From Escherichia coli (GTDB taxonomy: Bacteria; Pseudomonadota; Gammaproteobacteria; Enterobacterales; Enterobacteriaceae), in NCBI RefSeq assembly GCF_003334405.1, contig NZ_QOWM01000035.1: DNA of 3,274 nt. One strand, 5' to 3'. Positions 2,632 to 3,274 of the stretch are shown piece after piece; position 1 is the first letter of the stretch; each line of letters starts with the position of its first letter. The position numbers were made by a program, and so were the translations under genes. The notes beneath the pieces were generated by a model. It did no database searches, was not told where the DNA came from, and saw nothing but the letters and a program-made list of their open reading frames with translations.

Positions 2632-2666
2632 AAAAAAAAGGGGCTTTCTGCCCCTTTGTATTTTTT
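2632..2666 (+). terminator. rho-independent terminator, potentially bidirectional
   Basis: A-run, GGGGC (2640-2644), loop TTTCT, GCCCC (2650-2654), then TTTGTATTTTTT. The flanking A and T runs can extend the stem and would allow termination in both directions. Confidence 0.6.
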
Positions 2667-2693
2667 GACAAAAATGCTATGTGTAACTATAAT
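2665..2693 (+). promoter_or_regulatory. sigma70 promoter matching consensus (TTGACA, 17-nt spacer, TATAAT) for the hicAB-like operon
   Basis: -35 TTGACA at 2665-2670 and -10 TATAAT at 2688-2693 with a 17-nt spacer. A short inverted repeat AACTA-taat-TAGTT (2685-2698) overlaps the -10 and could be an operator. Confidence 0.6.
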
Positions 2694-2721
2694 TAGTTGC
2701 ATATCTATAGGGGATGGATTT

Positions 2722-2970
2722 ATGGGGAAAACAGATAAGCTACTGGCAAAGTTTTTAAACAGTAAAAAAACGTTTGAATGGGATGAACTGGTCGTTTTGT
2801 TTTCCTCTTTGGGATATGTCAAAAAGGAAATGCAGGGGTCAAGAGTGCGGTTTTTCAATGCTGAAATCAATCACACCATATTAATGCATCGTCCACATCC
2901 GGAAAGTTATATCAAAGGTGGTACGCTGAAAGCAATTAAACAGAATCTGAAAGAGGCTGGATTATTATGA
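2722..2970 (+). CDS. hicA: HicA-family type II toxin (mRNA interferase-like), 82 aa
   Basis: SD AGGGGA at 2709-2714, 7 nt before ATG 2722. Product ends in a HicA-like pattern (GS..., HRPHP, KAIKQNLKEAGLL). Stop overlaps the downstream start (ATGA at 2967-2970). The listed 2656 start lies inside the promoter and is rejected. Confidence 0.8.
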   Translation: MGKTDKLLAKFLNSKKTFEWDELVVLFSSLGYVKKEMQGSRVRFFNAEINHTILMHRPHPESYIKGGTLKAIKQNLKEAGLL

Positions 2971-3274
2971 AACATTTAAAATATAAAGGATATTTAGGCA
3001 CGGTTGAACCCGATTTTGAAAATAATGTCCTGTATGGGAAACTGGCGTTTATTCGGGACCTGGTAACTTATGAGGCTTCTACATTAGCTGAACTGGAACA
3101 GGAGTTTAAAACATCTGTTGATCTGTATTTACAGTCTTGTGTGGAGGATGGAAAGGAACCTGATACCCCGTTTAAAGGCGTGTTTAACGTCAGGCTTGAT
3201 CCAGAACTGCATCGTCGGGTAGCAGAAATGGCGATGGAAGAAGATTTATCACTGAACGCCTTTGTTAATAAGGC
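2967..3274 (+). CDS. hicB: HicB-family type II antitoxin, 3'-partial (runs off window end)
   Basis: ATG 2967 overlaps the hicA stop. Frame is open for 102 codons to the window edge. Product starts MKHLKYKGYLGTVEPDFENNVLYGKLAFIRDLVTYEA and reaches a ribbon-helix-helix-like stretch (FNVRLDPELHRRVAEMAMEEDLSLNAFVNK). Not in the ORF track because no stop lies in the window. Confidence 0.8.
   Translation, partial: MKHLKYKGYLGTVEPDFENNVLYGKLAFIRDLVTYEASTLAELEQEFKTSVDLYLQSCVEDGKEPDTPFKGVFNVRLDPELHRRVAEMAMEEDLSLNAFVNK

Follow-up and report, generated by a model that had tools for sequence, protein, structure and literature searches.

Introduction

Several HicAB toxin–antitoxin systems provide the background for the module described here, which lies at the downstream end of a 3,274-nt stretch of Escherichia coli DNA (contig NZ_QOWM01000035.1; the whole stretch is referred to as the window). 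Its closest described counterpart is the overlapping "hicA^O^B" subfamily named in PMC11878559 and represented by the IncX4 plasmids p14EC007a and pJIE143. The p14EC007a module is the same system, located at the same position upstream of taxA/ddp1–taxC, with overlapping genes and no internal terminator. As a system, the module is already known, being IncX4 hicA^O^B and belonging to class 4 of Gerdes. Here we describe two features of it. The canonical catalytic His of HicA is replaced by Arg, probably with a His on the adjacent strand taking its place, and a conserved palindrome over the promoter forms a putative HicB operator.

A second plasmid-borne type, hicA^T^B of the IncI2 plasmid pHNSHP45, resembles this module in being carried on mcr-1 plasmids and in encoding a toxic HicA that is neutralised by HicB, but its proteins are <26% identical, its HicB is of the PF15919 type, and an intergenic intrinsic terminator raises its toxin:antitoxin ratio (PMC11878559). 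The HicAB system of E. coli K-12 (class 3) has the same order of HicA toxin then HicB antitoxin and is autoregulated at a palindromic operator (PMC10865869), whereas its HicB carries a helix–turn–helix (HTH) instead of a ribbon–helix–helix (RHH) domain and its operon has two promoters. More generally, class 3 and 4 HicB antitoxins autorepress via palindromic operators bound by their RHH or HTH domains (PMC10865869).

The HicAB of Burkholderia pseudomallei (4C26, 6G26) and the near-identical gonococcal HicAB are canonical class 4 systems. They share with the module of the window the HicA fold, the G-S turn, the core Phe and P-H-P, as well as a HicB with an RHH domain and the order hicA then hicB. 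Their HicA is ~60 aa long, with GSH and an essential His24 (PMC3969222, PMC12297915), whereas the HicA of the window has 82 aa and GSR, contains an extra N-terminal helix and strand, bears a His at the position of the invariant Thr37, and is ~24% identical to them. Yersinia pestis HicA3/HicB3 (4P78) likewise shows class 4 architecture, its SGSH aligns with GSR, and its HicB represses the promoter. It differs in its catalytic His28, in a Tyr replacing the His of P-H-P, and in having no His on β3.

A class 4 hicAB module on an IncX4 plasmid backbone

The window is 100% identical to part of NZ_CP070012.1, a 32.6-kb E. coli plasmid typed IncX4/MOBP/MPF_T, and is IncX4 plasmid backbone. In this plasmid it is flanked by the replication region on one side and the relaxosome genes (ddp1/taxA, taxC) on the other. 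The module comprises two genes:

2722–2970, + strand: hicA, encoding an 82-aa HicA-family toxin (Pfam HicA_toxin, E=1e-11).
2967–3274, + strand: hicB, first 102 of 115 codons, the window ending inside the gene (Pfam HicB PF05534, E=1e-19).

These matches establish the HicAB-like module that a preliminary description, made from the letters of the window, had recognised. The two genes are adjacent, co-oriented and predicted to be co-transcribed, and full-length HicB has 115 aa in the source plasmid. The hicB start overlaps the hicA stop as ATGA (2967–2970), which implies translational coupling, and the same 4-nt overlap is found in all seven related loci examined.

Residues 20–81 of HicA cover the complete HicA_toxin model (PF07927/COG1724, positions 1–58 of 58), and the protein also matches PHROG 8887 "toxin" (E=3e-34). 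HicB matches PHROG 9151 "HicB-like antitoxin" (E=1e-49). NCBIfam and PADLOC contain no model matching HicA, and PADLOC contains none for HicB either. At the C-terminus of HicB, RHH-type matches are weak but concordant (YlcI_YnfO_N at 8.5e-6, RelB-like, Antitox_RHH, RHH_10 and RHH_1). In addition, residues 73–112 weakly match the CopG RHH structure 9KKD, and Arc-like repressor PHROGs match as well. The low-confidence structure model of HicB (predicted local distance difference test, pLDDT, only 54.5, from a 7-sequence alignment) has a β-α-α C-terminus, and its N-terminal strands 10–16, 21–27 and 32–37 and helix 40–60 fit β-β-β-α, the order of the partial RNase-H-like fold with which class 4 HicB antitoxins bind HicA. 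Taken by these profile matches, HicB is a predicted class 4 (RHH) antitoxin sensu Gerdes 2024.

Arg at the canonical catalytic position of HicA

In described HicA toxins the catalytic His is located at the start of β2, namely His24 in B. pseudomallei and gonococcal HicA, His28 in Y. pestis and His36 in Streptococcus pneumoniae, and Gly22 in the β1–β2 turn is essential in the B. pseudomallei and gonococcal proteins. The HicA of E. coli K-12, which stands outside our alignments, has the canonical His as well. Two motifs of the window HicA correspond to this part of the protein:

2836–2844, + strand: codons G39-S40-R41, motif of the β1–β2 turn, with Arg at the canonical catalytic His column (two profile alignments).
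2887–2901, + strand: codons H56-R57-P58-H59-P60, the clade-defining H-x-P-H-P motif (conservation among 120 relatives), with H56 as the proposed relocated His.

The AlphaFold2 model of HicA (pLDDT 96.5) shows helix 20–29, strands 32–36, 41–46 and 51–56, and helix 66–79, and this α-β-β-β-α core is preceded by an N-terminal extension (an extra helix 3–13 and strand 17–19). Its best Foldseek matches are HicA structures (6G26_E/F, 1WHZ and 4C26; target-normalised TM 0.57–0.73). A single-sequence phmmer search of HicA against the PDB found nothing, and a profile built from 120 full-length relatives (alignment A1, also the basis of the residue counts below) was needed. With this profile, hmmsearch places GSR39-41 at G22-S23-[H24A] in B. 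pseudomallei HicA (4C26, 6G26) and at G-S-H28 in HicA3 of Y. pestis (4P78). A second comparison, by hhalign against a canonical clade of Burkholderia/Ralstonia HicA (alignment A5; probability 86%, E=5e-6), pairs R41 with H24, F44 with F27, H56 with T37, and P58-H59-P60 with P39-H40-P41, making H59 equivalent to the canonical His40. The search with B. pseudomallei HicA had returned only close relatives at 75–90% identity, so this comparison represents one canonical lineage and offers no family-wide contingency table.

The preliminary description had aligned G-S-R-V-R-F by eye and placed Arg at the canonical His. That alignment is correct, as both independent profile methods put Arg41, not His, in the catalytic column, and the other His residues it had noticed nearby are H51, H56 and H59. 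Misalignment might be suspected in a short divergent family whose HMM matches to the PDB are weak (E ~0.004), in which case the true His homologue, for example H51, would be present but offset by an indel. We regard such an artefact as very improbable. The two methods agree with each other, the anchors G-S, F44/F27 and P-H-P all align, H51 is found in only 32 of the 120 relatives, and His in the G-S-x turn is confined to the single lineage of P0093 described below. The protein is therefore filed in the HicA family by profile and fold, yet it is not a canonical GSH-type HicA, because Arg41 fills the catalytic His column in two alignments and His occupies that column in just 1 of 120 relatives.

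A clade of Arg41-type HicA proteins and the exchange of histidines

Relatives of this HicA form a clade that numbers at least 335 cluster representatives (E<=1e-3), typically ~80–85 aa long among the matches listed, and occur in Enterobacterales plasmids, Photorhabdus, Xenorhabdus, Acinetobacter, Shewanella, Leptospira and Acaryochloris. Arg occupies position 41 in 99 of the 120 A1 sequences, the others having Ala (8), Gly (7), Ser (3), Val (1), Tyr (1) or His (1). The neighbouring turn residues are strongly conserved (G39 in 117, S40 in 115), and so is the downstream motif (H56 in 118, P58 in 118 and H59 in all 120). The Arg replacement is a trait of the whole clade, not of this gene alone. 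At the column of H56, the canonical clade has an invariant Thr (T37, opposite His24).

The sole sequence with His41, the metagenomic P0093, has a GSSH turn and Ala at position 56. Searching with P0093 returned three relatives only. Two of them, the metagenomic P0295 and P0296, are its only close relatives and also have GSSH without His56, so that position 56 is Ala or Val/Pro in this sub-lineage, and the next relative, P0297, has GSR with H56 again.

RelE is an RNase toxin without a catalytic His, and Arg or Lys serve in RelE-type RNases. By this general precedent of His-free RNase toxins, Arg41 itself might do the chemistry, stabilising the transition state or acting as general acid, and leave H56 and H59 to structural or RNA-binding roles. 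This would suit the location of Arg41 precisely at the catalytic position and its prevalence among the relatives (99/120). However, Ala, Gly or Ser replaces it in 18 of 120 members that keep both H56 and H59. Arg41 is accordingly common but dispensable whereas H56 and H59 are not, and a catalytic Arg is unlikely.

As a separate observation, one match to the HicA query, P0046, is a 1115-aa predicted protein that matches in six separate stretches (E=2e-11) and could represent either a fusion of several HicA domains or an error of gene calling.

Toxicity and selection

HicA (WP_000520549.1) and HicB (WP_000681613.1) are residue-for-residue identical to the pair of p14EC007a (IncX4, CP024132), and promoter plus operon differ from that plasmid at 5 of 654 nt. 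The p14EC007a HicA is reported to be toxic in E. coli K-12 and fully neutralised by HicB (PMC11878559, Nucleic Acids Res 2025, Fig. 5D). Between IncX4 and IncI2 plasmids, hicA has a synonymous divergence (dS) of 0.49 and a nonsynonymous divergence (dN) of 0.013, giving dN/dS 0.03; purifying selection on the gene is strong. PLSDB contains ~540 plasmids that encode a HicA of >=95% identity, 372 at >=99% and 169 at 95–99%.

These data bear on the proposal of the preliminary description that the altered motif means a divergent catalytic arrangement or an inactive toxin. The former agrees with the clade-wide pattern, and the latter is contradicted. An inactive or decaying toxin, with the module persisting as a remnant kept for HicB only or by hitch-hiking, could account for the missing canonical His, for the 23 PLSDB plasmids of one lineage that have lost the promoter and hicA together with the 5' portion of hicB, and for the little competitive or stability phenotype reported upon hicAB deletion (PMC11878559, PMC11594946). 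The module is reported to confer only a slight advantage in plasmid competition (PMC11878559). Against this explanation stand the dN/dS of 0.03 and the ~540 plasmids with near-identical HicA. It is refuted because the identical protein has been published as toxic and HicB-neutralised (PMC11878559), and we give it almost no weight.

A candidate relocated histidine

The functional end of HicA is formed by the β1–β2 turn together with the β3–α2 loop (Butt et al., PMC3969222), where residue 40, corresponding to H59 here, lies near His24 in space (PMC3969222). In the AlphaFold2 model of the window HicA, the DSSP strands 41–46 and 51–56 are separated by a 4-residue loop, and the register of this hairpin makes a pair of residues 41 and 56. 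F44 and I53, which belong to the core, are paired in this register as well, and residues 41 and 56 should therefore share one exposed face. Residue 41 would thereby be placed opposite H56 across the hairpin. The most economical reading of the conservation and the modelled register is that the catalytic imidazole has moved to the adjacent strand, and the active site is likely divergent.

A toxicity without catalysis would also be compatible with the absence of the canonical His and with growth arrest as the only effect published for this HicA (PMC11878559). In that case the canonical RNase site would be truly lost, and the fold, which resembles a double-stranded RNA-binding domain, would sequester RNA or a translation component. 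Yet two near-invariant His residues are retained by the known active end across a diverse clade, and their reciprocal swap with His41 looks like a conserved chemical requirement instead of simple binding. We consider purely sequestering toxicity improbable, to about the same degree as a catalytic Arg41.

Promoter and putative operator

Three elements precede hicA:

2665–2693, + strand: predicted sigma-70 promoter, with -35 TTGACA at 2665–2670, a 17-nt spacer and -10 TATAAT at 2688–2693 (12/12 consensus).
2682–2701, no strand assigned: putative HicB (RHH) operator, the palindrome TGTAACTA-TAAT-TAGTTGCA (comparative alignment and custom scan).
2709–2714, + strand: Shine–Dalgarno sequence AGGGGA, 7 nt before the hicA ATG (direct sequence reading).

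The promoter is the sole 12/12 sigma-70 site in the window, and such a site arises in 0 of 200 dinucleotide-preserving shuffles, in agreement with the preliminary description of two perfect consensus hexamers with a 17-nt spacer. The TTGAC of the -35 hexamer is invariant in six related loci. The inverted repeat that had been noticed over the -10 is real and longer than the "short" repeat first described. It is a 20-bp near-palindrome with 7 of 8 arm positions complementary, and it covers the -10 hexamer as well as the site where transcription is expected to start. A match to the ideal palindrome as good as this one occurs in 3 of 200 shuffles. The repeat search with a 6-nt seed missed it, and comparative alignment together with a custom scan brought it out.

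The palindrome pattern occurs exactly once per related locus, always just upstream of hicA. Its arms (core AACTA-N4-TAGTT) and TTGAC are kept in loci whose HicA is 46–74% identical, comprising a Salmonella plasmid contig and Photorhabdus and Xenorhabdus chromosomes at 72–74% and metagenomic contigs at 46–53%. In Photorhabdus the central 4 nt have drifted to CTGT or TTGT, and the -10 with them. Between IncX4 and IncI2 plasmids, where cassette homology starts exactly at the -35, 3 of 40 positions differ from -35 to +1. None of these differences falls in the 21-nt TGTAACTATAATTAGTTGCAT, which is the 20-bp palindrome with the following T, whereas 36% of hicA synonymous sites differ. The palindrome is a strong candidate for the operator, because its arms are conserved, its centre drifts and a single copy lies upstream of hicA in each locus. 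The C-terminal RHH domain of HicB would be its obvious reader.

The promoter of the window has a single palindrome site only, over the -10. We rejected another palindrome, which has its centre on the -35 (GTATTTTT-TGAC-AAAAATGC), as an operator candidate, since its left half falls outside the cassette and shows no conservation in the IncI2 copy. In two distant relatives (L012 ~110–130 and L014 ~240–262), a second operator-like palindrome is found ~30 bp upstream of the first, and its right arm (TAGTTGCA) supplies a -35-like TTGCA.

The hicA and hicB mRNAs are reported to be similar in level and not elevated relative to purA (PMC11878559). Strong transcription restrained by autorepression is plausible and is consistent with the published non-elevated hicA mRNA for this operon type.

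The locus as a whole

We think it probable, on balance, that the locus is a functional class 4 hicAB module which is autorepressed by HicB at the palindrome and whose catalytic His has been relocated to H56. The operon would be transcribed from the perfect sigma-70 promoter, and HicB or the HicAB complex would repress it via the RHH domain bound to the conserved 8-N4-8 palindrome over the -10 and +1. In this N-terminally extended HicA clade, the canonical His at the start of β2 would have been replaced, mostly by Arg, and the imidazole would come from H56 at the end of β3, which would lie opposite in the hairpin, share the exposed face and adjoin the invariant H59. The active site would thus have been rebuilt from the neighbouring strand, not lost.

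Several points weigh against this account. The adjacency of R41 and H56 is suggested by secondary-structure register, not by measured distances. Because the P0093 search yielded three relatives only, the reciprocal H41/non-H56 pattern appears to be one lineage and a single evolutionary event. In canonical gonococcal HicA, mutation of His40 (H59 here) has no effect on toxicity (PMC12297915), so the invariance of H59 is no proof of a catalytic role. The published activity of this HicA is toxicity alone, not RNase activity. On the side of repression, binding of HicB to 2682–2701 is proposed by comparison of loci, and the HicB structure model is poor (pLDDT 54).

A wider and more tentative proposal, to which we give somewhat less than even weight, is that the whole clade constitutes a distinct catalytic HicA subclass. 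It would be characterised by the N-terminal extension, G-S-(R/A/G/S) and H-x-P-H-P, and its general acid/base His would have moved from β2 to β3, where it would act together with the His of P-H-P.

Distribution of the cassette

From the -35 onward, the cassette is near-unchanged between IncX4 and IncI2 plasmids. IncI2 mcr-1 plasmids of ~60 kb carry a 97.6%-identical overlapping hicAB copy, and the 169 PLSDB records at 95–99% belong to this group. These IncI2 copies sit oddly with the published claim that the overlapping subfamily is predominantly IncX4 (PMC11878559). The IncI2 plasmid p14EC017a (NZ_CP024135.1) has the same upstream block, composed of a J-domain protein and two small ORFs, and in addition a second, truncated HicB-family pseudogene ~1 kb from its hicAB copy. 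A hicA^T^B module was sought there, and no obvious hicA ORF was found beside this second pseudogene.

One IncX-type plasmid lineage has a ~424-bp deletion (window ~2661–3084) in which the promoter, the complete hicA and the first ~40 hicB codons are lost, as exemplified by NZ_CP025853.1 (L002) 5652–5673, where a HicB C-terminal pseudogene remains. The left breakpoint coincides with the edge of the cassette, a short way before the -35. Precisely this junction recurs in 23 PLSDB plasmids, versus ~540 with intact HicA.

Neighbouring elements of the plasmid

One further feature adjoins the module on its upstream side:

2637–2657, both strands: GC-rich hairpin AAAGGGGC-TTTCT-GCCCCTTT (terminator scan and inverted-repeat search).

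With an A-run on one flank and a T-run on the other, this hairpin looks like a bidirectional intrinsic terminator that would keep hicAB insulated from the ORF that ends upstream at 2629. It is located outside the cassette, as IncX4/IncI2 homology begins only at ~2663. Farther upstream, at 2428–2457, a perfect stem of 13 bp closed by a 4-nt loop (GTGATCAGGTTGC-TGGA-GCAACCTGATCAC, + strand) starts 11 nt past the stop of the 2106–2417 ORF. In the terminator scan it scores solely on the minus strand, where TTTCAGTTTT comes next. Downstream of it lies a 45-codon ORF (2492–2629) without RefSeq annotation.

The ORF at 1735–2109 encodes repeated GDV/SGD β-strand-like units and matches PHROG 3163 (function unknown, E=1e-21). 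Its labels vary by record ("tail-associated lysozyme", "DUF4097 beta strand repeat" or hypothetical), and the lysozyme label looks like annotation drift. A phage locus was considered in view of the "tail-associated lysozyme" labels and rejected, because a search of the phage collection with the window gave no near match. An Rfam scan of the entire window gave no match.

At 970–1269 (L001 6970–7269) the window contains a 300-nt GC-rich block (54–65% GC, the flanks having ~35%) that lacks both annotated genes and Rfam matches. A second, 100%-identical direct copy is located 2075 bp away in the source plasmid (L001 4895–5194), and the two copies bracket a J-domain/ORF/ORF/HTH gene block. The 300-nt block is found at 80–90% identity across IncX4 and IncI2 plasmids, usually in 2 copies per plasmid, and 1583 of its 1587 places are on plasmids. 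Folded as single-stranded DNA, it is mildly better than shuffles (z -2.0 and -2.4). The block might serve a conjugative leading region as a single-strand promoter or as an ssi-like element. Outside the window, L001 4119–4294 comprises ~8 tandem 22-bp repeats (ACCGAGGAAG[C/T]T[C/A]TCATGTTTA) adjoining the replication initiator gene, which are presumably IncX4 iterons or oriV.

Implications

The missing catalytic His, the H-x-P-H-P motif and the operator are unmentioned in the searched passages of PMC11878559, where "histidine" appears once, for a His-tag. They are likewise unmentioned in the 2024 HicAB review, in the Gerdes survey and in a targeted literature search that did not cover Bustamante & Iredell 2017 and 2019. 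Within these sources the active-site variant seems unreported. Apart from the active site and the palindrome, the module is ordinary and already characterised.

The cassette resides on the IncX4 and, near-identically, the IncI2 plasmids by which mcr-1 colistin resistance spreads around the world, and the conserved palindrome defines a putative operator for studying HicB repression on both plasmid types. The HicA literature uses the His at the start of β2 to judge activity, and here a toxin with published toxicity (PMC11878559) lacks that His. This is a warning against annotating Arg41-type HicA proteins as dead, and it provides a direct experimental handle on the poorly defined mechanism of HicA via a clinically widespread plasmid toxin. 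If the clade is indeed a distinct catalytic subclass, its cleavage chemistry or RNA specificity could differ from that of canonical HicA, and the "essential His24" rule for calling HicA proteins active or inactive would no longer apply to the whole family.

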